Assembly: GCA_048939245.1 (NCBI GenBank)
Contig: JBHLPR010000035.1
Coordinates: forward strand, 1-21,717
DNA from: Promethearchaeota archaeon
GTDB lineage: Archaea > Asgardarchaeota > Hermodarchaeia > Hermodarchaeales > Hermodarchaeaceae
Direction: 5' to 3'
DNA: 21,717 bases
This document shows positions 3,520-21,717 of this stretch, in pieces. The notes under the pieces are model-generated. The model was not told the DNA's origin, ran no database searches, and saw nothing but the letters and a program-made list of their open reading frames with translations. The stretch's first letter is position 1, and each line of letters opens with the position of its first letter. Both the position numbers and the translations under genes were made by a program.

Positions 3520-3528
3520 TTCAATGAA
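3520..3528. repeat. Isolated perfect copy of the 9-mer TTCAATGAA
   Basis: Intergenic, upstream of the tandem Lrp-like regulator. It is a single unit and may be chance. Confidence 0.35.
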
Positions 3529-8469: not shown

Positions 8470-8790
8470 TCATTCGGATTTTTCCCATAGTTCGATAAAT
8501 CGTCGAAGCGCTAGAGCCCGAAGATTCTCGATTTTATAACGATAAATCCGAATCCGACCAAATGTTTTCTCTTGAACAAGTTTTGCACGTTCTAGAAGTT
8601 GAAGATGTCTTCGTGTTGTACTATGATTCAACTGTGTTCTCCTAGCGATTTCAGAGATGTTCAGTTCCCCACACTCCGCTAGAAGACGTATGATCTTAAT
8701 TCGCCCGCGCGAGGAAAACAGAATCTCGACAGGAATTGGTCGATCATCCGTTAATTGTTCAAGGAGTGGAGGTTTTGACTCCTCAACCAC
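8470..8790 (-). CDS. ArsR-like winged-helix DNA-binding protein coupled to cdc6
   Basis: LFSSRGRIKIIRLLAECGELNISEIARRTQLNHSTTRRHLQLLERAKLVQEKTFGRIRIY. The start overlaps the cdc6 stop. Confidence 0.85.
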   Translation of the reverse strand: MVEESKPPLLEQLTDDRPIPVEILFSSRGRIKIIRLLAECGELNISEIARRTQLNHSTTRRHLQLLERAKLVQEKTFGRIRIYRYKIENLRALALRRFIELWEKSE

Positions 8791-9994
8791 GTCTTACACC
8801 TACTTTCCTTTTTTCAAGGAGGAGTTCTAGTTCGCGCTCTAGAACTGCTGCAGGGATGTCAGGCAGGCTGATTAGAGTAGTATTACCGCGTTGCCCAACA
8901 CTGGAACTCTTCGTCGTGAGAATTCCCAACCCTACAAGATCCTGAATGTACGCCCATATCTGAGTATGAGAACGAGGAGTCTGTACGTACTCTTCGCAGA
9001 CAAGTCCATAACGAACCTCCAGAGCACCAGTAGTGACATAAGCGTCTTCTGAAGGCTTTAGCAACCTACATACGGCAATTAGAAGGAGAATTTGAGAGGT
9101 TGATAAATCCACGAGAACTTCACGTCGTATCTCCGGCGTGATAAAAGCCTTTGCGCTTCTTACGAATTCGGGCAATATTCGGAGTACGCCCTTTTCGTCG
9201 GCCACTTTTCCGGCATTGTATAGCACTTCTAATGCGTAGCGTGCATCCCCCGAGGCACCTGCTATGTCTGCTATCAAATCAAGTGTGCTAGAAGGAACGG
9301 CTCCGTCTAAAACCGCCTCTTTTACCCGAAAATTTAGGATATCTCGAAGCTGGCGGGAATTATAACGGTTAAACCGGAGCATGTTTTTCTGAAGAGTACT
9401 CCATGTGCTCGGATCGCGAATATAGCCAAATAGGGGGGTTCGGCTTATGCCAATTAGTGATACACGTTGTTGGGCATTTAGCCGATCATCGACAGTACGC
9501 GATAGCAGGTAGAGCAGCTCTTCACCACAACGTTTGAGAAACACTCCGAGTTCATCCAGTGTCACAAGCAGATAGAGATTTTTCGATTCTATGTACTCCA
9601 GAATTATTGAAAGGAGTTCCTGTGTTGATAGCCCCCTAAGCGGAATACCAGTCTGGAACGTTGAGAGGATTTTGTTTAAAATCATGTATTCTGTTCGTTC
9701 ACGACGCGCATTAACATGCACATATATTAGATTAAATCCGTGACTCTTTGCAATCTCAACTAGGAGTGTTCCAAATAGCTTAGTTACCGAGGTTTTCCCA
9801 GAGCCAGTGTCCCCAACAATTAGTACTTTTTGCGATATTTTACCAGGCGCTTCAATTACACCACGGAACAACTGAGTTAACTTGCGTAGATGTTCCTCCC
9901 GATGGGGGAGGTTGGGAGGAACATAATCGATGGAAAGCTTCGCCTCATCAATGAATACAGATGGGCGTTGTAATTCATGTCGAATAATCTCCAT
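8783..9994 (-). CDS. cdc6: Orc1/Cdc6 family protein, Orc1-2/Cdc6-2-like subfamily
   Basis: LSIDYVPPNLPHRE, Walker A GDTGSGKT, Walker B VTLDE, GDARYALEVL, and wHTH PRSHTQIWAYIQDL..LGIL...GQRGNTTLISL. The likely start is ATG 9994 (GGAGA upstream), not 10165. Confidence 0.95.
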   Translation of the reverse strand: MEIIRHELQRPSVFIDEAKLSIDYVPPNLPHREEHLRKLTQLFRGVIEAPGKISQKVLIVGDTGSGKTSVTKLFGTLLVEIAKSHGFNLIYVHVNARRERTEYMILNKILSTFQTGIPLRGLSTQELLSIILEYIESKNLYLLVTLDELGVFLKRCGEELLYLLSRTVDDRLNAQQRVSLIGISRTPLFGYIRDPSTWSTLQKNMLRFNRYNSRQLRDILNFRVKEAVLDGAVPSSTLDLIADIAGASGDARYALEVLYNAGKVADEKGVLRILPEFVRSAKAFITPEIRREVLVDLSTSQILLLIAVCRLLKPSEDAYVTTGALEVRYGLVCEEYVQTPRSHTQIWAYIQDLVGLGILTTKSSSVGQRGNTTLISLPDIPAAVLERELELLLEKRKVGVRRG

Positions 9995-10115
9995 CCTGTG
10001 TTCTCCGTTCGCTATATTTTGAACATCGAGTGGGTGTAATAAAAGAACAGACAGAGTCGAAGATAAGTGAACTAACCCCGAAGATGAAAAAATTCGAGAC
10101 CGAAATGAATGTAAT

Positions 10116-10652
10116 TTATTTTTCATCAGTGTTTTCGGAAAAGACACGCGTTTGGAGATATTCACCTAACACGGTTAATGCATAGCTAGCCAAGCGTGAG
10201 TTTTCGTTCTGAGGATAATTGTGTCTTCGAAGTTGTGCAGCGTTAAGAATCCTATTGAGCGTGATGAAAATATCACGTGAATCGTTAACGAGTAGAGAGA
10301 TGCGATCTTCAGGGACATGAATTTGTTCCTTTAAGGAAATTCTTCCTCTCTTACCCTCATCGATGAATAGAATAAGGAACACGAGGGCCATAACTCCAGT
10401 TATCGTGTAACGAAACGTGACCGACGAAAAGGGATAGGGAACAGTGTCACCAGAAATGAAGATAATAAGCTCAGAAGCGGAGAAACTAATCGCTACAATG
10501 GATAGCCCCACTAGGGTAAATACTGCACGTATACGTCGTCGAGTGTATACGTCTTTGATTATCGTATCAATGAATAATAATTCACCAACCAGTGGATATA
10601 GAAGGAAGAGGAGTGTTGCACGCATTCCTGACACAGGTTTGGGTTGATTCAT
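10116..10652 (-). CDS. Hypothetical membrane protein (about 3 TM helices plus a cytoplasmic tail)
   Basis: Three hydrophobic segments; it fills the gap between cdc6 and the divergent ostC. The start is uncertain (ATG 10652 or GTG 10670). Confidence 0.6.
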   Translation of the reverse strand: MNQPKPVSGMRATLLFLLYPLVGELLFIDTIIKDVYTRRRIRAVFTLVGLSIVAISFSASELIIFISGDTVPYPFSSVTFRYTITGVMALVFLILFIDEGKRGRISLKEQIHVPEDRISLLVNDSRDIFITLNRILNAAQLRRHNYPQNENSRLASYALTVLGEYLQTRVFSENTDEK

Positions 10653-12514: not shown

Positions 12515-12550
12515 TTTAATGAATTCAATGAATTTAATATTTTTAATAAA
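12515..12550. repeat. 9-bp tandem array 1 (TTTAATGAA TTCAATGAA TTTAATATT TTTAATAAA)
   Basis: Four phased units filling the xpd-radB gap. Confidence 0.85.
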
Positions 12551-12554
12551 CCTT

Positions 12555-14480
12555 TTAAAATTCTGTTAGCGAATAGAATTTTTTCAAATGAGTATAAAGT
12601 TCTCCATCAGCATCGTTTGACCCCTTTAAGTTTTCATTTATCCAACTAGGAAGTAAACGTCTGCACAAAGAAGTAGCATACCGATCGTCTAAAAATACTA
12701 TTACCCCCTTGTCTTCAAGCCTTCGAACAGAACGTCCTGCAGCTTGTGAAGCACGTCGCATTGCTGGTAATTGATATCCATATAATCGACCTTTTTGAGG
12801 GAAGTGCTGTTCGAAATAATCAATTCTAACGGTTTCCTTTGGACTGGGTTTCGCATAGGGAACCCCGACGATTACTACTGTCTCCATTTCTTGACCCGGA
12901 TAATCCTCTCCTTCACTATTTCGTCCACCTAGAACACCAAGAAGAACGGCTCCATCTTTGGCCCTTCTCTTAAACTTTCGAACCAGTGAATCGTTTTGAG
13001 CAGAAGACATCTTGGGCCTTTCAATAAACAGTTCCCGATTGAGTAATTTCTCCAAACCTGTAGCAAGAAGGGATTGTATCACAGCATATGACGGAACAAA
13101 GATCCCAACATTATGAGGAGTTGCTTGACAGACCTCTAGAATACGACTGTTAATTTTTTCAAACATTGTAGGAGTTCGGTATCTCATCAAAGTGGTAACT
13201 CCTTGACTAACTATTGGAAGAATCTGATCACAAGTAAATGGAGAAGGCAAATTCAATACCCGTGAATTTGCTGGTAAACCAACTAAGTCAATATGCGCGC
13301 TGATTGGTTCCAAGGTACCTGATAAATGAACGGAAGCATGACATGAATTTAACACAGAGGCCGTTGAAGTTCTTGGATCTAATGCAACTATTTCAATACT
13401 AGCTGAGGATTTATTATTGACAGTTCGATTCACAAAATAAGCAGCATCAGTTCTTTGAAGAAAATAACACCAACGAGTAAAAAATTGTGCCACAGAATGA
13501 ATGTAACTTATGGGTGGCTTTCCTTCTCCTATTAATTTACTTAATATCCTGTCACCGATCTTAACCATAGTGTTTGAAAAATTCTCAAAATCATCAATGC
13601 CTAGAACCTCGCAAATTTGCGCAGTCAATTGTATAGGATCAAATTGTATCTCCTGCCCAGCGTTATCATCGATAATTTGCTGCAATATATTTTCAAACAC
13701 TTGATAGAATTTACTAAGTCTCAATAGCGCATATTGATTTGCTTCTTTCTTTGATTGACGGATTGAATAGAAAGACAATTTAGCTGATGCCAATTCAACA
13801 GCAATACGAGGTAAATTGTGAGCCTCATCAAGAAGTAAGACTGTATGAGAAATGGAATGACCAAAGGCATCGAAAAATAGTGCATTGATATACGGATCAA
13901 AAATTTGAAAATAAGTCGTGGCCACAACGGTCATTAATGGTAATAGGCGCTTTGAAAGTTCATAGGGGCAAACTCTTTCTAACTTACATTTCTCGCGAAG
14001 TTCTAATCCTGTAAGTGGAGTTTGATAAAATGTTCGTAGATAGTCTTTATCATTCTTTATTTTCTTCATGAAATTTCGATAGTACTCACATCGCCCCGAA
14101 CGTTTTAGTTGACTACAAATAAACATTGCAAGTTGCGCGTTCTTCGCATATCTGTGAACTACTTGATTCAAACATGAAGAAGCACGTCCTCGAAGGACTA
14201 CCCCGTTGAATCCTGTTGATTCGGAAATAGGTCGGAGCTCCTGCATAACACGGTCAAGCTGCTTATGTGTTCGGGCAACATATAGAATACCAAATCTTTT
14301 CTTTTCTAGTAGAGTCAGGACCCCTGATATGGCTGCAATAGTTTTCCCAAATCCATTCGCTGCTTCAACACAAAGGTGATTTCCCAGAGCAACTTCTTCT
14401 TGAATTGAATGGATAAGGGAGAGCTGACCAGGTCTTGGCACCGCATATGGAAAGTAGTTTTCAATGTGTTTTGAACCCAT
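12555..14480 (-). CDS. xpd: XPD/Rad3/DinG family Fe-S DNA helicase
   Basis: FPY..PRPGQ Q-motif, AANGFGKT, YVARTHKQL, Fe-S cysteines (SSCLN, FICSQL, GRCEYY, VCPYE), LLDEAHNL, LSGTLEP, SEGEDY, QAAGRSVR, DDRY. The start is ATG 14480 (GGTGAGG 9 nt upstream) or 14498. Confidence 0.95.
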   Translation of the reverse strand: MGSKHIENYFPYAVPRPGQLSLIHSIQEEVALGNHLCVEAANGFGKTIAAISGVLTLLEKKRFGILYVARTHKQLDRVMQELRPISESTGFNGVVLRGRASSCLNQVVHRYAKNAQLAMFICSQLKRSGRCEYYRNFMKKIKNDKDYLRTFYQTPLTGLELREKCKLERVCPYELSKRLLPLMTVVATTYFQIFDPYINALFFDAFGHSISHTVLLLDEAHNLPRIAVELASAKLSFYSIRQSKKEANQYALLRLSKFYQVFENILQQIIDDNAGQEIQFDPIQLTAQICEVLGIDDFENFSNTMVKIGDRILSKLIGEGKPPISYIHSVAQFFTRWCYFLQRTDAAYFVNRTVNNKSSASIEIVALDPRTSTASVLNSCHASVHLSGTLEPISAHIDLVGLPANSRVLNLPSPFTCDQILPIVSQGVTTLMRYRTPTMFEKINSRILEVCQATPHNVGIFVPSYAVIQSLLATGLEKLLNRELFIERPKMSSAQNDSLVRKFKRRAKDGAVLLGVLGGRNSEGEDYPGQEMETVVIVGVPYAKPSPKETVRIDYFEQHFPQKGRLYGYQLPAMRRASQAAGRSVRRLEDKGVIVFLDDRYATSLCRRLLPSWINENLKGSNDADGELYTHLKKFYSLTEF

Positions 14481-14544
14481 TATCCTAATCCTCACCATCT
14501 GAATATCCTAGAAGGATAAAAACCTCATTTAATTAGCAAGGGTA

Positions 14545-14570
14545 TTCATTAATTCATTGAATTCAATGAA
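14545..14570. repeat. 9-bp tandem array 2 (TTCATTAA TTCATTGAA TTCAATGAA)
   Basis: Contains the perfect 18-bp palindrome TTCATTGAATTCAATGAA at 14553-14570, upstream of xpd. Confidence 0.9.
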
Positions 14571-14665
14571 ATTCTTAGATTAACGGTTTCTAATTCTACA
14601 ATAAAAAATGCGAGATAAGAAAACGAGCCTCTAATAAATCTCTCTTTAAATCGATCCAAGAAAAA

Positions 14666-14685
14666 GGGGTAGGCATGCCTACTCC
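14666..14685. repeat. GC-rich inverted repeat GGGGTAGGCATGCCTACTCC
   Basis: Perfect 14-bp palindrome GTAGGCATGCCTAC (14669-14682), extendable with one G-T pair, in an otherwise AT-rich intergenic region. Confidence 0.6.
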
Positions 14686-14794
14686 CCATCATTGTGTTCT
14701 AATCCATAGAATGAAATGTGTCGCTAGCCAGGTTCTTAATGGTATTGAGTGCCATTCGGCTCTGAACCAGATGTCAGGGATGTGAGGGAATTCC

Positions 14795-15292
14795 ATGTTA
14801 CTTACACTTCTCGGTATTTTCGGGATGCGTAGATTCCAACTGAAGCACCGCAATCATTTTATTATTATCAACTTGAGCCTACTAGCTTTAGCAACCATGG
14901 AAACAACGATAACCCTCTGGCAACCTGACTATTTCTATGGGGTCCCCAATATACTCCAGTGGATAATTTCCATATTAGGAGGGAAATTTGCTGTATTGGC
15001 TGCCTTTCCTTTTTCTGTAAAAATCTTCTTTTCTGCGTTTTGGTTAGAATGGGGGGAATACCATCTTTTCATTTACCTCGGTAACCTGCCAATTATTAAC
15101 CTGCAGTCCCCCACAGTGCCAGTCGGGGGGGTCGAACGATTACTCTGGATGCTACGCATTCGAATACTCGCCTTTCCCATCGTGTTCCTGCTAAACCTAA
15201 CCTTCTTTCCAATCTATATTCTTATACAATACGGCATCCATCAACTCCAATCAAGGGAATCGAGTAAAATGACTTATCATTATAATAACTAA
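14795..15292 (+). CDS. Hypothetical membrane protein
   Basis: 165-aa ORF with several hydrophobic segments and no recognisable motif. The start may be ATG 14825. Confidence 0.5.
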   Translation: MLLTLLGIFGMRRFQLKHRNHFIIINLSLLALATMETTITLWQPDYFYGVPNILQWIISILGGKFAVLAAFPFSVKIFFSAFWLEWGEYHLFIYLGNLPIINLQSPTVPVGGVERLLWMLRIRILAFPIVFLLNLTFFPIYILIQYGIHQLQSRESSKMTYHYNN

Positions 15293-15491
15293 CAAAATTA
15301 GAAGTGGTTACGCTCCACACAATCGGATACGTTACACAAAGATAACGGGGAAAGAACTGCTTCTATTTTAATGGAGAATTAAATACTGGTTCCTTTGGAA
15401 TTGATTTGACAACATTGTTGATAACCAAATACAACAGTTTTTAAGAGTCTGTTCTTTACGTATACAAAATTGTATCCATGGAGATGATGAT

Positions 15492-16004
15492 TTGCCAAGA
15501 AAGAACGAAATCGAGGAGACCCGTTCTTGGGCGCGTAGAATGCTAGAAGACCCGATTACCAAATTATTAGCAGAAAATAGTCAGTTATCTCAGGTTCAAC
15601 TTGAAACCCTGGTACTCGATTATCTTCTGGATGGATTTGGGGGAAAACGCATCGACTATCAAACGAAAGCATCCTTGAGAGGCCAAAAAGCAACCAAGGT
15701 AAAGCAGGGTGGTGTTAGTAGAGGAGCTTTCAACCGTTCACTTGCTCAAGCAAGACGAAATGTTACGAGGTCCGTTTTTACATTAGTTCTTCTTGGTTAC
15801 CTAGGGTTATTTGATACCCCAGCGCTAATGCGATACCAAGATCTTGCAGAAGATATTCGAAGCTATGCACGTGAATATGATATTGTTGCAACAAATAAAG
15901 AAAAACCAACTCAAACTCATCTTAACACCCTTAAACAAACACAGGAACGCATTTTACAGCTTATTGAAGCTCTCGCTCAACCTATAGCCCTCAAACCAGA
16001 ATGA
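15492..16004 (+). CDS. Conserved-looking archaeal HTH protein (Tfx/sigma-region-4-like)
   Basis: SQLSQVQLETL ... DYQTKASLR...VSRGAFNRSLAQARRNVTRSVFTLVLLGYLGL resembles an HTH followed by a long dimerisation helix. GGAGA RBS before TTG. Confidence 0.6.
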   Translation: MPRKNEIEETRSWARRMLEDPITKLLAENSQLSQVQLETLVLDYLLDGFGGKRIDYQTKASLRGQKATKVKQGGVSRGAFNRSLAQARRNVTRSVFTLVLLGYLGLFDTPALMRYQDLAEDIRSYAREYDIVATNKEKPTQTHLNTLKQTQERILQLIEALAQPIALKPE

Positions 16005-16008
16005 AACC

Positions 16009-16028
16009 TTTCAATGAATTCATTGAAA
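16009..16028. repeat. 9-bp tandem array 3 (TTCAATGAA TTCATTGAA), perfect 20-bp palindrome
   Basis: TTTCAATGAATTCATTGAAA lies in the 42-bp gap between two convergent stop codons. Confidence 0.9.
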
Positions 16029-16046
16029 ATCTTAATATTTTGAAGA

Positions 16047-16619
16047 TTATGATACTTGATCAATAATGTGTTTTCCCGTAGCTGTGATTATTAACTCATC
16101 TTGATTCTTCTGAAGATAATCCTTATTGAGTAGGTAGTTAATAGCTCGGCCAGAATATTCCAGAGAGAACCCAGCATTAGAAAGGTCGGATTGGTTGATG
16201 CTTCCTCCCTTTTTCTGAATTTGAAATAGAACAGAAAGATATCCGTAATTAATAATGAGCTTGCTGGTCATGTCAATGTCCTCGTCATATTTCATTGGCC
16301 AGAGCGAAGTTGGTAACCAACCAGTAAAAGTGTAAAATATCACTTCGTTGAATGAGCGGAGTAGATTGATAATTTCATCCTCTGATCCAGGAGGAACAGC
16401 TAAAACACTTTTTCCTAATTTTATGTGAGGTATTTGATCTAACACACCGGGATAGTGATAGTTTCGAACAATGATTTCTCCATTTTTTAATTGCTGTTTG
16501 ATTTGTTGACTGTGACCATACAATTCCCTGAAGAACCGGGTTTTCCGAGACTGACTCACTCCCTTTTGGTGTTTAAAATCAAAAGAAATAACACTGACAT
16601 GCTTCAAATCATCAGACAT
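16047..16619 (-). CDS. Hypothetical protein: Cas2/VapD-like ferredoxin-fold N-domain plus C-terminal wHTH
   Basis: N-domain VISFDF...RKTRFFRELYG...GVL...KLGKSVLAVP...EIINLL. C-domain VLFQIQKKGGSINQSDL...GRAINYLLNKDYL....LIITATGK is a typical wHTH. GAGGT RBS. Confidence 0.6.
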   Translation of the reverse strand: MSDDLKHVSVISFDFKHQKGVSQSRKTRFFRELYGHSQQIKQQLKNGEIIVRNYHYPGVLDQIPHIKLGKSVLAVPPGSEDEIINLLRSFNEVIFYTFTGWLPTSLWPMKYDEDIDMTSKLIINYGYLSVLFQIQKKGGSINQSDLSNAGFSLEYSGRAINYLLNKDYLQKNQDELIITATGKHIIDQVS

Positions 16620-16707
16620 CGAATTTGTAACCTCAAGATATTGGTATAAGACAAATTATACCAGAACCCCCTCTAAAATTAGTAACGACTTAGAGTAACT
16701 AGACTAG

Positions 16708-16743
16708 TTCAATATCTTCATTAATTTTAATGAAGTTTATGAG
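16708..16743. repeat. 9-bp tandem array 4 (TTCAATATC TTCATTAAT TTTAATGAA GTTTATGAG)
   Basis: Phased units whose core forms the inverted repeat CTTCATTAA-TT-TTAATGAAG (16716-16735), directly downstream of the RHH gene. Confidence 0.8.
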
Positions 16744-16760
16744 TTTATAAAGGATGAGGG

Positions 16761-17129
16761 TTAGCTTTCGCGTTGTAACTTCTTGTAAACATCAGGGAAA
16801 TCGGATTTCAGTTTCTCTTCTAACGCTTCAGCTATGAAACGAGACTTACCACCGAACCCTGCGTATTGTCCTTGCCCTGATTTTGTTGCTGCTAATGCTA
16901 CGAAATCCAAAGCAGCTTTAATCCAAGCAGGAACACTTGCACTGATTGTTCGACGCCCTTCGTATTCGCTTTCAATACGTAACCGCTTTAACCCAGAGTC
17001 GCCAACTCTTGTTGAAAGTTCCTCTAGCTCAATCTCTTTTGTTTCTGTTGATTGGGGTTTTTCCTGGGATTTGGATTTTGACTCCTTTTCCTTTTTCATT
17101 CGTTCTCTAATTAAGTCAGTAGCTGACAT
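16761..17129 (-). CDS. Ribbon-helix-helix DNA-binding protein with a long charged N-terminal tail (ParG/omega/SegB-like architecture)
   Basis: Strand RRTISASV, helix PAWIKAALDFVALAA, turn, helix KSRFIAEALEEKL. The N-terminal ~55 aa are K/E/S-rich. TAA-GGTGA-AAAAA-ATG couples it to the ATPase stop (start 17129). Confidence 0.72.
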   Translation of the reverse strand: MSATDLIRERMKKEKESKSKSQEKPQSTETKEIELEELSTRVGDSGLKRLRIESEYEGRRTISASVPAWIKAALDFVALAATKSGQGQYAGFGGKSRFIAEALEEKLKSDFPDVYKKLQRES

Positions 17130-17139
17130 TTTTTTCACC

Positions 17140-18459
17140 TTAGACAAATGTGGATCCTTTCGTCCAAAGCTCAGTGGCCTGTATCTGACCTGCTTCTGGA
17201 CTATAGATTAGACCTTGTTTTTCGAATAAGTCGAAATCTTCTAACACGCTTTCCCATGAACGCTCTTGACTTTGGAGCCATGATTCAATATCGTCAAGAG
17301 TACGGGGAAAAGATAAGAATTCCAAAAGGGTAGTTTGAAAATTGTTAAACTCCGCTCTCGCTCGTGTTACTTCTTTTTGGGCAAACTGCTGAATGTATTC
17401 AGCATTAATATGATATGCTGATAAGACCTGATCAAATGTGTAACCGTCATTAACCAGAACCTCAGCGCCACGAATCGCATCTTGAAGAGATCTCAAGAGG
17501 AGTTCGAGCATAATTCCAGGATTGCCACCAGAGAAATTATAAATCGCTTCTAATGCCTCTCCTGTGAATGGGGTTAGAATTGCCTTAATTTTTGAGGAGT
17601 TTAGATCAATACTCTCTTCTGGGTCCTTACTAATTTGATCAATTGACCCCTTGAGATAGGCGAGTCTCCAAAGTAATACCTTCATCGCGCTGATTTTTTT
17701 CATTCTACGCATATCATAGATCTCAACAAACCGTCGTCGAATTGCGGATTTATTTCCATGACCTAATGTTTCTCCAACTGAGGAAAGAAGTTCAAGTGTT
17801 TTAACAGCACTTTCCCCAATACGCGTAATTATCGCAAGAGCCAAAACAAGGTAACGCCGACCATCCTTGGTCTTATCATTTACCATTCGTAGAAGAGTGT
17901 CGACAATACGTACACGATTATCTGGCCTTTGCCGTTCTAATTGTCGAAACTCGTCTATCAACAAGACATACGAGGTTCCATTCTCTTCAGCATCAGTTCT
18001 CAAAGCCAATAATAGACGGGAAAGGCGTTTTGCTATTGATCCACTTCTAACTACCCTAACGCCTACTTTGTCGATTAAGAATTCACGAACGGTCTTTTCA
18101 CCTATGTTAGCGTGAACAAGATCGTCTATCAACGCGTCAGCCGAGCTGACTCCTTCAAGACGAATCGCACGAATGTTGGGTAGACGATTCAAGGACTGCT
18201 GAATCATCTCTAAGAAAGTTGTTTTGCCTGCACCTAGGGGACCAGAGACCACTACGCTAGCAGTTTGGTTTCGAAGATAGTTGACCGCACGTTTAATCGC
18301 TAGGGCTTCTTCTTCAGGGACCACGTACAAATCCTCTGAGTCTATACCAAAGAGTTCAATCCGTTCATTTTTGAATCCCCACTTTGAAAGCATTTGCTGA
18401 TCAAATCTTTGTGTTTGCTCGACTAATTTATCAAGTTCACTCAGACAAAACACACCCAA
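17140..18459 (-). CDS. AAA+ ATPase (ExeA/AAA_22-like) with C-terminal winged helix
   Basis: Walker A GPLGAGKTT, Walker B VLLIDE, putative Arg finger AIRRRF, lid FTGEALEAIYNFSGGNPG, and a C-terminal LLEFLSFPRTLDDI...FEKQGLIY wHTH. It lacks the ParA deviant KGGxGK motif. Confidence 0.8.
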   Translation of the reverse strand: MGVFCLSELDKLVEQTQRFDQQMLSKWGFKNERIELFGIDSEDLYVVPEEEALAIKRAVNYLRNQTASVVVSGPLGAGKTTFLEMIQQSLNRLPNIRAIRLEGVSSADALIDDLVHANIGEKTVREFLIDKVGVRVVRSGSIAKRLSRLLLALRTDAEENGTSYVLLIDEFRQLERQRPDNRVRIVDTLLRMVNDKTKDGRRYLVLALAIITRIGESAVKTLELLSSVGETLGHGNKSAIRRRFVEIYDMRRMKKISAMKVLLWRLAYLKGSIDQISKDPEESIDLNSSKIKAILTPFTGEALEAIYNFSGGNPGIMLELLLRSLQDAIRGAEVLVNDGYTFDQVLSAYHINAEYIQQFAQKEVTRARAEFNNFQTTLLEFLSFPRTLDDIESWLQSQERSWESVLEDFDLFEKQGLIYSPEAGQIQATELWTKGSTFV

Positions 18460-18521
18460 TATTAACTTCAGAGAAGGTTATTCGATAATAAATAATTATT
18501 GATTGTATTTAAGATATAAAA

Positions 18522-18557
18522 TTTAATTATTATATTAAATTCATTGAATTTAATGAG
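18522..18557. repeat. 9-bp tandem array 5 (TTTAATTAT TATATTAAA TTCATTGAA TTTAATGAG)
   Basis: Four phased units in the very AT-rich region upstream of the ATPase gene. Confidence 0.82.
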
Positions 18558-18569
18558 TTTTCGCTTCAA

Positions 18570-19163
18570 TTATTTTTTTGTGAATGCAATGATATCGATT
18601 TTTGTAATTATCCCCACAGGCCTATTTTGGTCTAGAACCAAGAGTGCCTCAATTCCAGACGCAATTTTAGAAAGGGCTAATTCAGAAGTATCCTTAACGT
18701 CAATTGTTGGAAATGGAGGTTCCATGATCTCTCTAACAGAAAGCCCAAACACTTTCTGTGATTCGATAGTCATTAATTGTCGGATTATTGCGCCTTCGCT
18801 AATCGATCCAACTGCATTATTTCCCTTTATAACAGGAAGCTGTGAGATTCCATGACGCCTCATTAGGATTACGGCGCGTCTTACTTTGTCCTCAGGAGCA
18901 ACCCATATTAGTGGATTTAATTTCGAAGAATGGCCTTTCCATCGTATTAAATCTCCAATTGTTAAATGAACTTTCTCTTGTTTCTTAATAACTTTGAGAA
19001 TACGTTTGAGAGTGATTATACTAGGATTCACTTGACCTTTTTCAATACGGGCAACTAATGACTGACTAATACCTACCTCATCAGCTAGCTCTGCTTGAGT
19101 TAGTCCCACTTTTCTTCTAAGCTCTTGCAATTCCTCTGGTGTGGGTACGCGAAAATCAGACAC
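18570..19163 (-). CDS. XRE-family HTH transcriptional regulator with C-terminal CBS pair (COG3620-like)
   Basis: PTPEELQELRRKVGLTQAELADEVGISQSLVARIEKGQVNPSI, plus CBS motifs VAPED.V..A..LM..HGISQLPV and VREIMEPPFP...GIITKID. The likely start is GTG 19163. Confidence 0.92.
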   Translation of the reverse strand: MSDFRVPTPEELQELRRKVGLTQAELADEVGISQSLVARIEKGQVNPSIITLKRILKVIKKQEKVHLTIGDLIRWKGHSSKLNPLIWVAPEDKVRRAVILMRRHGISQLPVIKGNNAVGSISEGAIIRQLMTIESQKVFGLSVREIMEPPFPTIDVKDTSELALSKIASGIEALLVLDQNRPVGIITKIDIIAFTKK

Positions 19164-19251
19164 AGATAATACACCGTCTTTAGGTACTATAGGTAATAAC
19201 TCCAAAAGAATTAATACTCTGCTGGAATCGGTGAAGAATGGAGATGACACC

Positions 19252-21570
19252 GTGACAAAAATCCAACAAGCTGAAATTCGAGTCGTCGGTGTCGTTCAAG
19301 GAATAGGTTTTCGACCATTCATTTATGCACAAGCTGTTAACCGGGGATTAAGCGGCTATGTTTTAAACACGGGAAATTCTGCAGTCCGAATAGTGGTTGA
19401 GGGGGAAAAACAGAAAATCATTGAATTCATTAAATCCATTGAAAATGACAAACCATACTTAGCGGTTATTGACAGCATACAGACAATCTGGAAGCCCTCA
19501 AAGAAACAATTCCCAGATTTTCAGATTCGCCATTCCAAGAATGAAAAGAAGGCAGGTGGATCTGTTATTCCCCCAGATATCTCTGTATGTCATGATTGTA
19601 TTGATGATATGAATGACCCCCAATCACGTCATTACCAGTACCCTATGACTTGTTGCGCCATTTGTGGTCCTCGTTATACAACAGTAACAGACACTCCATA
19701 TGACCGTGAACGAACCACAATGAATGATTTCCCCCTATGCGAAGATTGCGATTCTGAGTACAATGACCCTTTAAATCGGCGATATAACGCTCAAACTATA
19801 TGCTGTCCAGTTTGTGGACCTACTTTTCAATTATTCACAGCAGACGGTTCAGTAATTGGATGTGGTGATCCCTTTCTCGAAACGGTAAAATTATTGAATG
19901 AAGGAGCCATTGTAGCAATCAAGGGATTAGGAGGGATTCATCTTGCAGTCCGTGCGACGCTAGATGCCCAAGTGCAACGATTACGTAAATTACGAAACAA
20001 ACCTCACAAACCCTTTGCCATAATGTCTAAGGACCTTGATATGGTTAGACAATATGCCTCTGTCAATACTACAGAAGAACGACTACTTATTTCATGGAGA
20101 CGCCCAATCGTTGTTTTAAATCAACAAACTCCATTCCCACTTTCTCCTTCTCTAGCACCGAATTTAGATACAATCGGTGTGATGCTTCCCTACTCAGGAA
20201 TTTACCTCAGGCTATTTGAAGGATTACAGGATCTTGCACTGGTTATGACAAGTGCAAATCCAGTAGGGCTACCCACCATTATTCACGAATCAACATTCCA
20301 AAGAAATTTCATGAAGATGGCAGATTATTTTCTTAGCCATAATCGAGCCATCTATCAACGCTGTGACGATTCAGTTATAATACCGATATTCAACCAAGAA
20401 CTCATTATCCGTCGTTCAAGAGGATACACACCTGAGCCCATAGACACAGCTGATGGTGGCCCAACGATTCTTTCTTTGGGTGCTTTAGAAAAGAACACCG
20501 GAGCTATTTACCATAGGCGACGAATCTATCTTACTCAACATATTGGAGATGTAGATACTGTTGAAGCCTTGAAATACCTTCAGGAAAGCTTATCACATCT
20601 GCAACGACTGCTCCGAGTTTCTGATTTCGAAGCTGTTGCTTGTGATTTGCACCCTGATTTCCTAACTACCCAATATGGTAACGAATTGTCAAGAGATCAC
20701 GAAATTCCACTCATTCAAGTACAACACCATCATGCTCATCTTGCTTCCCTTCTAGCAGATTTCAAGCTTCCATCCGACGAAAAAATCGTAGCCATCTGTT
20801 GCGATGGAGCTGGTTATGGCCCTGATAATACTATTTGGGGCGGGGAGATTCTCGTTGGTAACGCCCAAGACTATGCTCGTTCAGGTTTTCTCGAACCACA
20901 AATCATGCCTGGGGGAGATCTGGCTGCACAATATCCGTTTCGTATGTTACTGGGCATACTTTCTAAGAAATACGCGCACACCGAGTTATATGATCTCTTT
21001 GAGGGGGAATCCAGAACAGCCTTACCTCAAGGTCCAAATGAGCTCAAAGTAATTCTTGCCCAAATCCAGCAGGAAATCAATACACCATTAACTTCGAGCA
21101 CTGGTCGATTATTGGATTCACTTGCAGCCTTACTAGGAGTTTCTTATCAGAGAACCTATGAGGGAGAGCCAGCTATCCACTTTGAAGCCTTTGCCAACAG
21201 AGGTAACTCTAAGATACGGTTACAAACACCTATTGAACAGAAAGGAGAAAAAAGAATTCTAAAAACAGGTATCTTGGTAGACCAAGTATTGAAACATCGT
21301 GATAGATACAAAGGTCCCGATTTAGCGTTGGCAGCACACCATAGCATTGCTCAGGCATTAGCACAAGCGGCTATTGGCGCGGCTAATTCTCAAGGGATAT
21401 CCAAGATTGGATTTTCTGGAGGAGTTGCCTTTAATAAAATTTTGACACGAAGCATTAAATCAGAAATCGAAAAAGAAGGAATGGAATTTCTTATTCATCG
21501 AAACATTCCTCCAGGTGACGCAGGAACCTCCGCGGGGCAATCTCTTGTTGCTCGTGCAAAAATCAATTGA
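19252..21570 (+). CDS. hypF: [NiFe]-hydrogenase maturation carbamoyltransferase HypF
   Basis: Acylphosphatase GVVQGIGFRPF, two CxxC-x18-CxxC zinc fingers (CHDC/CAIC, CEDC/CPVC), KGLGGIHL, RRSRGYTP, QHIGD, HHHAH, DGAGYG.D..IWGGE, TSSTGRLLD, SGGVAFN, PPGDAG. Start GTG 19252 with a GGAGA RBS. Confidence 0.97.
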   Translation: MTKIQQAEIRVVGVVQGIGFRPFIYAQAVNRGLSGYVLNTGNSAVRIVVEGEKQKIIEFIKSIENDKPYLAVIDSIQTIWKPSKKQFPDFQIRHSKNEKKAGGSVIPPDISVCHDCIDDMNDPQSRHYQYPMTCCAICGPRYTTVTDTPYDRERTTMNDFPLCEDCDSEYNDPLNRRYNAQTICCPVCGPTFQLFTADGSVIGCGDPFLETVKLLNEGAIVAIKGLGGIHLAVRATLDAQVQRLRKLRNKPHKPFAIMSKDLDMVRQYASVNTTEERLLISWRRPIVVLNQQTPFPLSPSLAPNLDTIGVMLPYSGIYLRLFEGLQDLALVMTSANPVGLPTIIHESTFQRNFMKMADYFLSHNRAIYQRCDDSVIIPIFNQELIIRRSRGYTPEPIDTADGGPTILSLGALEKNTGAIYHRRRIYLTQHIGDVDTVEALKYLQESLSHLQRLLRVSDFEAVACDLHPDFLTTQYGNELSRDHEIPLIQVQHHHAHLASLLADFKLPSDEKIVAICCDGAGYGPDNTIWGGEILVGNAQDYARSGFLEPQIMPGGDLAAQYPFRMLLGILSKKYAHTELYDLFEGESRTALPQGPNELKVILAQIQQEINTPLTSSTGRLLDSLAALLGVSYQRTYEGEPAIHFEAFANRGNSKIRLQTPIEQKGEKRILKTGILVDQVLKHRDRYKGPDLALAAHHSIAQALAQAAIGAANSQGISKIGFSGGVAFNKILTRSIKSEIEKEGMEFLIHRNIPPGDAGTSAGQSLVARAKIN
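19417..19443. repeat. 9-bp tandem array 6 inside hypF (ATCATTGAA TTCATTAAA TCCATTGAA)
   Basis: Three phased units, each one mismatch from TTCATTGAA, encoding IIEFIKSIE. Confidence 0.7.
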
Positions 21571-21604
21571 TTTTATTCAAATCAAAATGATTGATGAATT
21601 GATT

Positions 21605-21640
21605 AACAATGAGCTCATTTATTTCATTGAATTCAATAAT
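21605..21640. repeat. 9-bp tandem array 7 (AACAATGAG CTCATTTAT TTCATTGAA TTCAATAAT)
   Basis: Four phased units downstream of the hypF stop, with further degenerate units at about 21590-21607. Confidence 0.82.
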
Positions 21641-21654
21641 GTTCCAGTGGAAAT
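21641..21654 (+). promoter_or_regulatory. ORB/mini-ORB-like sequence GTTCCAGTGGAAAT
   Basis: Matches the core of archaeal origin recognition boxes (TTCCAGTGGAAA) but has no G-string. It is intergenic and directly abuts array 7. Confidence 0.5.
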
Positions 21655-21717
21655 CATCCACAACTAATATAAATACCCGATATTTATCTAGACGCAGAGT
21701 TGTAGTATTATGGCCGC

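Follow-up and report, generated by a model that had tools for sequence, protein, structure and literature searches.

Phased 9-bp palindrome arrays adjoining an Asgard replication origin and a candidate ribbon-helix-helix reader

Asgard archaea are the closest known relatives of eukaryotes and, to our knowledge, the initiation and segregation of their chromosomes are largely unstudied by experiment. MetJ of E. coli, a ribbon-helix-helix (RHH) protein, binds tandem palindromic 8-bp metboxes, of which 2-5 follow each other in strict phase. Each box takes one RHH dimer and neighbouring dimers contact each other cooperatively, with strong central and degenerate flanking boxes, and the operators are spread over several promoters. 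Arrays bound by the RHH protein omega likewise lie upstream of several promoters, its own operon included. The repeats bound by omega are 7 bp long, contiguous and in either orientation, and omega activates its ATPase (PMC9499535). The archaeal RHH protein SegB of the Sulfolobales binds palindromes that cluster near segAB and are mostly intragenic (PMC12284271).

The window analysed here is the whole stretch of 21,717 nucleotides from contig JBHLPR010000035.1 of a Promethearchaeota archaeon. It carries rows of abutting 9-bp palindromes next to a replication origin, which possibly belong to an undescribed origin-linked control or segregation module. A literature search with 13-mers of the arrays returned matches to unrelated primer or insert sequences only.

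Seven phased arrays on an origin flank

The original prediction described seven arrays of 2-4 units of the 9-bp word TTCAWTGAA, and every one is present at its listed place. The eight perfect copies (at 3520, 12524, 14553, 14562, 16010, 16019, 18540 and 21623) were also confirmed, and the expectation of fewer than one copy agrees with dinucleotide shuffles, which gave a mean of 0.88 and reached eight in 0 of 100 cases. Among units with at most one mismatch, the short spacings were 9 bp (five times) and 18 bp (once) and nothing else, as expected from strict 9-bp phasing, and no +9 pair arose in 200 Markov controls. The phasing was misread only at array 2, where the outer degenerate unit TTCATTAAT at 14545 sits 8 bp from the next unit, while a reading from 14544 is in phase. 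The mixed orientation ascribed to the units is defined by the central A/T alone. The copy at 3520 is a single unit with no neighbour. Single perfect units number 105 genome-wide, against about 32 expected from base composition; they are nearly all isolated and, judged by eye, have a coding look (FIE/FNE codons).

The unit consensus is TTYAWTRAA with an invariant A-W-T core, and the weight matrix of the arrays is symmetric. Most array cores form a perfect or near-perfect 18-bp palindrome centred on GAATTC. Three units are the most frequent array size (36 of 67 arrays), which indicates a unit of 9 bp and not an 18-bp operator. A genome-wide scan, which had been suggested as a check, showed that the rows are not spread over the genome: all three-unit matches in its 2.5 Mb are on this contig, bar one on contig C82. 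Specificity to this locus thus belongs to the tandem arrangement only and not to single units.

Array 1 (12515-12550) consists of TTTAATGAA TTCAATGAA and AT-rich degenerate units. Situated between the stop codon of xpd and the start of radB, it overlaps the core promoter region of radB and is found at the same junction in nine relatives. Array 2 (14544-14570), with the perfect 18-bp palindrome TTCATTGAATTCAATGAA, is situated about 20-25 bp upstream of the conserved TATA-like box of xpd, GGTTTTTATCC (minus strand, 14514-14524). Array 3 (16010-16027) is a perfect 18-bp palindrome with convergent genes on either side; it starts 6 bp past the stop codon of o170 and directly follows this stop in eight of nine relatives. 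Array 4 (16708-16743) comprises 3-4 units upstream of o190, and a conserved TTTTAG(A/G)G box is about 10-40 bp away. The four units of array 5 (18522-18557) adjoin the TATA-like box of an operon encoding an ATPase and a putative RHH protein, and an extra in-phase unit, ATCAATAAT (18495-18503, minus strand), lies 27 bp beyond it within the core promoter of this operon and is near-invariant in the genus. Array 6 (19417-19443) has three in-phase units within hypF, covering the codons IIEFIKSIE, and array 7 (21605-21640) is located downstream of hypF.

Intergenic placement applies to six of the seven arrays, as array 6 lies within the hypF frame. These six are found in the approx. 8% of the region that is intergenic, and five arrays overlap conserved TATA-like boxes or precede them by 0-40 bp, so that the earlier statement that their position is independent of promoters is not supported. 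The promoters concerned are those of radB, xpd, o190, the ATPase-RHH operon and the next gene past the contig end. As the array-to-box distance ranges between 0 and 40 bp and two arrays are away from promoters, a simple repressor model leaves some arrays uncovered.

At its end the array field meets a canonical origin, as array 7 directly adjoins the first ORB box, the mini-ORB GTTCCAGTGGAAATCATCCACAAC (21641-21665, plus strand). Next come a TATA box, TAATATAAATA, and a conserved gene for a 97-aa TrmB-like winged-helix protein (wHTH97), which starts at 21711 and is cut by the contig end. Beyond this break, relatives have three more ORBs with G-strings and a second cdc6 gene; in this genome these are on contig C81. 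Two cdc6 genes bracket the array field, one of them being the true Cdc6 gene at 8783-10165. wHTH97 was considered as the binder of the arrays and rejected: it occurs in 41 of 61 relatives, array-less genomes included, and the sister genus keeps the homologous promoter with an ORB-like box in the absence of the array.

Conservation, distribution and local proteins

Nine further genomes of this Asgard genus (Hermodarchaeia) keep all seven array positions, at protein identities of only 50-90%. The 18-mer was found in 12 of 14 genomes of the genus and in none of four genomes of the sister genus. The arrays are under selection at the DNA level, even inside hypF. Synonymous diversity in hypF is lowest at its array, where codon diversity is 0.13 compared to a mean of 0.58 over the gene, and each of the 11 windows with the lowest values, out of 450, overlaps array 6.

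The proposed binder is o128 (16761-17129, minus strand), a protein of 122 aa that is probably an RHH protein. The pattern sought for this fold (MetJ/Arc/CopG) was an N-terminal β-strand with alternating polar residues, helix A, a G-x-S/T/N turn and helix B. o128 begins with a conserved N-terminal peptide, MSATDLIRERMKK, followed by a variable K/E-rich linker and a C-terminal RHH-like domain with a TISASVP strand and a GGKSRFIAEALE helix; its invariant pattern is RRTISASVP-AWIKAALDFVA...GGKSRFIAEALEEKL. An hhalign comparison with five RHH_1 proteins of this genome gave the expected register with E 0.013, but a probability of 3%. In the AF2 monomer, residues 68-83 and 94-110 form helices and there is no strand; with a pLDDT of 57 it is too poor a model to be suited to a fold search. 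Searches of Pfam, NCBIfam and PDB sequences gave no match. A protein atlas pointed to a mobilisation protein, ParB_C and MetJ, but as all scored below 0.9 these are leads only. A profile search of 1.84 billion representatives found three clusters, all of the o128 family itself, which leaves o128 without a transitive connection to any named RHH family. As the family is tiny, the fold call rests on the pattern.

The o128-type RHH gene was detected in 16 of 400 Asgard genomes, i.e. in this genus and in the distant Asgard genome G022, whose RHH has the same strand and second helix. P0126, P0127 and P0129 are distant RHH homologues. Within the 2.6 Mb of G022, three-unit matches occur only 130-240 bp upstream of the RHH gene and 7 bp from an ORB; its units are degenerate and lie in AT-rich DNA. 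Adjacency of array and ORB is thus seen in two lineages. Eleven genomes without the RHH have two three-unit matches in total, although at least nine of them carry the HTH-CBS regulator, o170 or both and at least eight a wHTH97 homologue. Being conserved across the genus and found only where the o128 gene occurs, the arrays are most likely docking sites of o128; this co-occurrence amounts to just two independent lineages. A search for related loci returned only spurious P-loop matches in genome contigs; in metagenome contigs it returned nothing with one protein as query and, with an alignment, only Hermod-type loci.

The AAA+ ATPase (17140-18459, minus strand) has a lid and a C-terminal winged helix and matches PF00004 and PF01637/AAA_22 in Pfam. 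Its gene overlaps that of o128 by 8 nt as called and belongs to the same operon. The predicted structure is closest to Orc1/Cdc6: the best Foldseek matches of the model are archaeal and eukaryotic Orc/Cdc6 structures over the full length (1w5t, 2qby, 1fnn and 7jgr), with TM values of 0.41-0.48 and 12-14% identity. Unlike the Cdc6 at 8783-10165, it was not hit by the Pfam families Cdc6_C and Cdc6_lid. Homologues with 54-57% identity are found in Ranarchaeia (P0065-P0071). The complex prediction of the ATPase with o128 gave a score of 0.03, which is uninformative either way. The o128 segment considered for ATPase contact is MSATDLIRERMKKEK; the genus has both the N-terminal peptide and the ATPase, whereas the RHH of G022 and of its two close relatives lacks the peptide, and the ATPase was not found in G022.

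Three further proteins are encoded among the arrays. The genus-specific o190 (16047-16619, minus strand), which is flanked by arrays 3 and 4, has an N-domain and a weak match to a winged helix (wHTH); Pfam, NCBIfam and PDB sequence searches gave two weak winged-helix matches only, and the protein atlas just unnamed archaeal folds plus a wHTH. o170 (15492-16004, plus strand) is origin-linked and widespread in Asgard, has a conserved upstream element of its own and matched nothing in the same three sequence searches. The HTH(Xre)-CBS regulator (18570-19166, minus strand) also belongs to an origin-linked family widespread in Asgard.

Proposed mode of action and competing readings

The favoured explanation, held with moderate confidence, is that the arrays are cooperative binding sites of o128 with one RHH dimer per unit, which would control promoters of the origin flank and perhaps recruit the ATPase. 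Side-by-side cooperative binding of a dimeric protein, as originally proposed, fits units that are palindromic, abutting, phased and conserved in position. One o128 dimer would read one palindrome TTYAWTRAA, dimers 9 bp apart would touch, and 2-4 of them would fill an array, with a strong unit nucleating binding and weaker AT-rich units extending it. Since an array adjoins the TATA-like box of the operon of o128 itself and an in-phase unit lies on its core promoter, autorepression is predicted. Further arrays sit directly before or on the promoters of xpd, radB, o190 and the winged-helix gene on the origin side; the remaining ones follow the o170 stop and lie in hypF. Jointly, the arrays cover 9 kb on one side of the ORB-type origin, and the last one touches the first ORB. 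Through its N-terminal peptide, carried on a flexible charged linker, o128 probably contacts the Orc/Cdc6-like AAA+ ATPase encoded in the same operon; the module would then pair a regulator with an ATPase, as in omega/delta of pSM19035.

The arrays coated by o128 might also form a centromere-like or chromosome-organising field, a handle for the ATPase in origin segregation, positioning or licensing, with transcription control being secondary. This reading keeps the same binder and extends the favoured explanation, but is considered unlikely. It is consistent with about seven arrays within 9 kb adjoining the origin, with array-ORB adjacency in two lineages, with the non-promoter sites in hypF and past the o170 stop, with an array preceding an operon of ATPase and tailed RHH as in a type Ib par cassette, and with the mostly intragenic sites of SegB (PMC12284271). 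However, the arrays have a strong intergenic and promoter-proximal bias, lie on one side of the origin only and are present in G022, where the ATPase was not found. Moreover, the ATPase is an AAA+ protein of the initiator clade and not a ParA, and we know of no partition motor of this kind. Omega activates its ATPase only on four or more contiguous repeats (PMC9499535), a number that most arrays, with 2-3 units, do not reach. It is similarly doubtful, if conceivable, that in Hermodarchaeial Asgard archaea the RHH serves as an adaptor on the phased 9-bp arrays and recruits the divergent Orc/Cdc6-like ATPase to a partition-like or origin-licensing machine, which would use an initiator-clade motor instead of ParA and be physically coupled to the first ORB of oriC.

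Binding by another local protein, the RHH being unrelated to the arrays, appears quite improbable. The HTH-CBS dimer on the 18-bp palindrome, o190, o170 and the winged helix of the ATPase come into question. An 18-bp palindrome would suit an Xre-type HTH dimer, G022 also has HTH-CBS and o170 with conserved recognition segments, and the whole local block is absent from the sister genus. Nevertheless, of the binders listed in the original prediction the comparison of genomes picks the RHH. HTH-CBS (46 of 400 Asgard genomes) and o170 (119 of 400) are common in array-less genomes, several of the 11 array-poor ones included, so that o170 is probably not the binder and HTH-CBS is a less likely one. 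o190, listed as the Cas2-like winged-helix protein, and the ATPase were not found in array-bearing G022, and the commonest array of three units is ill-suited to one dimer per 18-mer. Cdc6, the last of the listed candidates, occurs together with ORBs in checked Asgard genomes without arrays. This also makes it very improbable that the units are shortened ORB-like boxes by which Orc1/Cdc6 binding is extended over the origin flank, in the manner of the satellite ORB/mini-ORB clusters of Thermococcales. The half-sites are alike (TTCA-W-TGAA and TTCCA-G-TGGAA), array 7 adjoins the mini-ORB, the two cdc6 genes bracket the field, and the ATPase encoded within it is itself Orc/Cdc6-like. Against this, the sister genus shares the ORB consensus and Cdc6 and has no arrays, the half-site spacing is off by 2 bp, the units are without G-string, and the ORB core TTCCAGTGGAAA, usually followed by one, is matched solely at 21642-21653 and by none of the array units. 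Finally, chance AT-rich repeats, mobile-element remnants or an RNA-level signal are hardly credible sources of the arrays. The region is AT-rich (60-62%) and the outer units are degenerate, but shuffles and Markov controls never gave the observed counts or +9 pairs, and Rfam and tRNA scans of the window found no match. Palindromes on both sides of genes of either strand argue against an RNA signal, and conservation, with the same gene junctions kept throughout the genus and synonymous sites constrained, has largely refuted this reading.

The locus offers defined parts, namely a DNA word of strict geometry, a candidate reader without known relatives and a co-encoded Orc/Cdc6-like ATPase, and the array field is in direct contact with the first initiator box of the origin. 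If the RHH loads the ORC-like ATPase on the arrays, this would be a new adaptor-based coupling of initiator-type ATPases to specific DNA. If o128 is merely a local repressor, the arrays would be a clean archaeal case of phased operators in the style of omega and MetJ and would mark an origin-proximal regulon (xpd, radB and the origin-side winged-helix gene).

Comparison with described systems

ORB and mini-ORB boxes, including the Thermococcales satellites, resemble the arrays as repeated dyads that flank an archaeal origin with half-sites TTC.A/T.GAA (PMC1904270), but the arrays have neither ORB spacing nor G-string and their distribution tracks the RHH gene and not Orc1. The aCcr1-3 proteins of Sulfolobales are likewise small archaeal RHHs with short boxes at replication, division and segregation promoters (PMC9976892, PMC13199686); their boxes, however, are single and spread over the genome, without phased arrays, ATPase partner or origin link. 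SegB resembles the proposed reader o128 in that a palindromic motif lies upstream of its own operon and at further sites clustered nearby, some of them inside genes, and in being co-transcribed with an ATPase, SegA (PMC8682754, PMC12284271). Its 13-bp motif TCTAGA-S-TCTAGA differs from the present unit and is mostly single, with about 40-50 sites chromosome-wide versus seven array sites in 9 kb here, and the ATPase at this locus is an AAA+ protein and not of the ParA type like SegA.

The likeness to MetJ lies in short phased palindromic units with a strong centre and degenerate flanks at several promoters. MetJ differs by its period of 8 bp instead of 9 bp and its corepressor SAM, and lacks both an ATPase partner and an origin link. 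The omega/delta/parS system of pSM19035 also has short gapless abutting units in either orientation, with 7 bp there and 9 bp here (PMC9499535, PMC2441792). No sequence similarity between the two modules is detectable; the present one is chromosomal, archaeal and adjoins oriC, its 9-bp unit is a palindrome, its arrays mostly have 2-4 units versus 7-10, and the partner is an Orc/Cdc6-like AAA+ protein and not a ParA with deviant Walker A motif. On the other hand, the gapless contiguous repeats, with one array upstream of the ATPase-RHH operon itself and more at other promoters, correspond to omega/ParG-type (type Ib) partition. Like omega, o128 is predicted to have a flexible N-terminal tail before its RHH domain, and the ATPase gene is co-transcribed in both systems, so that here too regulator and partition handle would be one protein.

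Unit, phasing and genomic distribution of the arrays

The palindromic unit TTCAWTGAA is present eight times in the 21.7-kb window (at 3520, 12524, 14553, 14562, 16010, 16019, 18540 and 21623), exactly as claimed in the original prediction. Its estimate of under one expected copy agrees with a mean of 0.88 in dinucleotide-preserving shuffles, none of which (0/100) reached eight. All seven tandem arrays described were likewise found, at 12515-12550, 14545-14570, 16010-16027, 16708-16743, 18522-18557, 19417-19443 and 21605-21640 (arrays 1 to 7). The copy at 3520-3528 is present, but it is a solitary unit and not an array. It is located 27 bp 5' of the start of an AsnC-HTH gene, was retained in the closest relative checked (locus L022) and was absent from L017; it could be a weak additional site or a coincidence.

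With up to one mismatch allowed per unit, short spacings took just two values, 9 bp (in five cases) and 18 bp (in one), and +9 pairs did not occur in any of 200 Markov-chain controls. The 9-bp phasing, which had been called strict, holds in this test; the outer unit of array 2 is offset by 8 bp and not 9. Most array cores are an 18-bp palindrome with the centre GAATTC (TTCATTGAATTCAATGAA at 14553, TTCAATGAATTCATTGAA at 16010) and therefore the reported mixed orientation of the units is carried by the central A or T alone. Of 67 arrays, 36 have three units, the most frequent length, 21 have two and 10 have four; the repeat unit is therefore 9 bp rather than 18. Built from 173 units, the position matrix is symmetric, with T.72, T.86, C.70/T.28, A.99, W, T 1.0, G.73/A.20, A.96 and A.68.

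Within the genome (2.52 Mb in 122 contigs, the window being the complete contig C22), 105 perfect single units were counted, about three times the expectation from base composition. The names of the organisms from which homologues derive place this genome among the Hermodarchaeia, a group of Asgard archaea. Nearly all of them are isolated and, judged by eye, resemble FIE/FNE codons. The three-unit pattern (TTYAWTRAW)x3 with up to two mismatches matched exclusively on C22, bar one site on contig C82, while its reversed control gave zero matches in the genome; the whole-genome comparison proposed earlier therefore shows the tandem arrays to be specific to C22 apart from this site. The C82 array (C82:12436-12462, or L061:1937-1963; TTCATTGAA ATTAATGAA TTTAATGGG) abuts a TATA-like AGATATAAAA and is flanked by an operon of an unknown 272-aa protein and a Ras-family GTPase and by a GNAT acetyltransferase gene. 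In the relative G012, pattern matches were confined to the origin-side locus.

Conservation and origin-flanking position of the array field

Of the 14 other genomes of the genus, 12 contained the 18-mer with at most one mismatch, each time clustered at one locus; it was absent from all four sister-genus genomes. The gene order radB-xpd-o170-o190-o128-ATPase-HTH/CBS-hypF is retained in nine relatives with protein identities of 50-90%, and these have an array at each of the seven corresponding positions, namely, at the radB/xpd junction, upstream of each of xpd, o190 and the ATPase gene, immediately 3' of the o170 stop, within hypF and downstream of hypF. An 840-bp stretch (14600-15440) with the membrane-like ORF o165 is unique to the genome studied here and has no second copy in it; the xpd-o170 gap of the relatives measures only about 190 bp.

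Array 6 (19417-19443) falls within the hypF reading frame, which corrects the original prediction. The other six of the seven arrays are intergenic though intergenic DNA makes up only about 8% of the region, and the view that the arrays are positioned independently of promoters is not supported. Conserved TATA-like boxes, defined by conservation in alignments of upstream regions, lie at or near five arrays. The xpd array is placed about 20-25 bp 5' of GGTTTTTATCC and that of o190 (16047-16619, minus strand) 10-40 bp 5' of TTTTAG(A/G)G. At the wHTH97 gene (21711), the order is array, mini-ORB and TATA; at radB, the start codon is separated from an AT-rich box by the perfect units. The four-unit array of the ATPase-o128 operon abuts the box TTTTATATC, and an additional unit, ATCAATAAT, follows exactly three periods downstream and is near-invariant across the genus. 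The non-promoter arrays are those 3' of the o170 stop and inside hypF. The o170 gene (15492-16004, plus strand) has its own conserved near-palindromic element, CGTATACAAAAYTGTATCC (15458-15476), which in every genome of the genus directly precedes the start of the gene. The corresponding place also carries an element in L017-L026, with TGTATAC in the distant Asgard genome G022. In the inspected loci (this genus, G022 and G019), members of the o170 family are a few kb or less from ORBs.

In the hypF array, three fully conserved Ile columns use ATT in 30 of 30 codons, Glu is always GAA (23/23) and Ser is TCC in 9 of 10, while the codons on either side vary freely. Mean synonymous diversity is 0.13 in the nine codons of the array versus 0.58 across the gene, and the 11 least diverse of 450 nine-codon windows all overlap the array. 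Selection acts on the DNA word itself.

The window encodes the small and large RFC subunits, Orc1/Cdc6 (8783-10165), radB, xpd and hypF. A match to the core of the Orc1/Cdc6 binding box (ORB), GTTCCAGTGGAAAT, begins on the base right after array 7. A strong TATA box comes next and then, at 21711, the ATG of a gene truncated by the contig end; in every relative, this gene encodes a 97-aa TrmB-like winged-helix protein (wHTH97). Beyond it, the relatives have three canonical ORBs with G-strings (GTTCCAGTGGAAAyNAAGGGG) in inverted arrangement, then the gene of a 151-aa wHTH protein and, last, a second cdc6. The remaining origin half was found at the start of contig C81 (C81:1-2807), with the 151-aa wHTH gene at 553-1005, an ORB with G-string at 1311 and the second cdc6 at 1575-2807. 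Therefore, the array field is a 9-kb region on one flank of an ORB-type oriC, touching its first box. By eye, the first ~550 bp of C81 are unlike the ORB pair of the relatives, and the assembly gap between the contigs may hide a rearrangement. HTH-CBS (18570-19166) and wHTH97 (21711-21717) recur near ORBs in several Asgard families and look like general origin-neighbour genes.

The candidate RHH protein and competing explanations

Among several DNA-binding candidates encoded in the block is o128 (16761-17129, minus strand). From its true start it reads MSATDLIRERMKKEK; an invariant peptide at the N-terminus is joined by a variable K/E-rich linker to the C-terminal segment RRTISASVPAWIKAALDFVA...GFGGKSRFIAEALEEKL. 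We read this C-terminus as a putative ribbon-helix-helix (RHH) domain with strand, helix A, G-x-S turn, helix B and a nine-residue loop insertion, a fold assignment with weak formal backing. Sequence searches of Pfam and PDB gave zero matches for o128. Its AF2 monomer is a poor model with helices at the expected places and the strand absent. A profile alignment with five RHH_1 proteins of the same genome had the expected register (E 0.013, probability 3%), and the protein-atlas neighbours MetJ, ParB_C and a mobilisation protein were all under the reliable score. The family forms three clusters among 1.84 billion representatives. The ATPase encoded upstream (17140-18459, minus strand; 8-nt overlap with o128 as called) is an AAA+ protein of 437-439 aa. 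Its model (pLDDT 82) is closest over the full length to archaeal Orc/Cdc6 (1w5t, 2qby, 1fnn) and eukaryotic ORC/Cdc6 subunits, with TM 0.41-0.48 and 12-14% identity.

All 14 genomes examined in the genus have both genes, and none of the four from the sister genus has either. Across 400 Asgard genomes, the ATPase is confined to the genus, and o128 was found in addition only in G022, which belongs to another family. The G022 protein shares the strand and helix B. Members of the genus, which also carry the ATPase, have the N-terminal peptide, and it is missing in G022 and its two close relatives; neither ATPase nor o190 was found in G022. This 2.6-Mb genome has three-unit matches at three sites in total, two of them 130-240 bp upstream of the RHH gene; the third is in the wHTH97 homologue's promoter region, 7 bp away from an ORB. 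Eleven RHH-less genomes gave two such matches summed; HTH-CBS and/or o170 are present in at least nine of them and a wHTH97 homologue in at least eight. The arrays therefore track the RHH gene and no other candidate, a pattern based on two independent lineages. At its origin locus (L025), G022 also has GTTAGGGGG-N25-CCCCCTAAC inverted repeats in two intergenic regions and ATTCACA/TGTGAAT words adjoining an ORB; the elements lie at 8563-8620, about 9670-9715 and 11640-11680 of L025.

This phyletic pattern disfavours binding by a different local protein, which is quite improbable: among 400 Asgard genomes, 119 have o170 and 46 have HTH-CBS, and 41 of 61 relatives carry wHTH97. That Orc1 binds the arrays as shortened ORBs is very unlikely, since genomes with the same ORBs are without arrays; in the sister genus (G016), the recognisably homologous wHTH97 promoter with an ORB-like box has no array. 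Chance, mobile-element or RNA features are essentially excluded by the conservation and the controls. A mainly centromere-like or origin-control function of the field would involve the same binder as the operator reading and is unlikely, though deserving of some weight; a segregation system at the locus is possible.

Proposed mode of action and known systems

The arrays as first observed are confirmed and much strengthened, and we classify them as probable phased RHH-type operator arrays of the omega/MetJ sort. One RHH dimer would occupy each 9-bp palindrome, its ribbon reading the YAWTR core, and adjacent dimers would cooperate at the 9-bp spacing, a distance that falls in the 7-11-bp range of omega, MetJ, ParG, ParR and Arc. 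In this proposal, the module represses its own promoter and controls the adjacent origin-flank promoters, and the tail peptides presented by every array would be accessible to the Orc/Cdc6-like ATPase. For such arrays, an Asgard origin flank as site and an Orc/Cdc6-like ATPase as partner would be unusual.

Omega arrays double as operators at several promoters. Among described systems, omega/delta/parS of pSM19035 comes closest: its RHH protein occupies abutting 7-bp repeats of either orientation and activates its ATPase from there (PMC9499535). In archaea, the precedent is SegB, an RHH protein with palindromes upstream of segAB and clustered, mostly intragenic sites (PMC12284271). In contrast to the ParA of omega- and SegB-type systems, the putative partner here is an initiator-clade AAA+ protein. 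Moreover, the arrays are short, the setting is a chromosomal origin flank and the field touches an ORB in two lineages.
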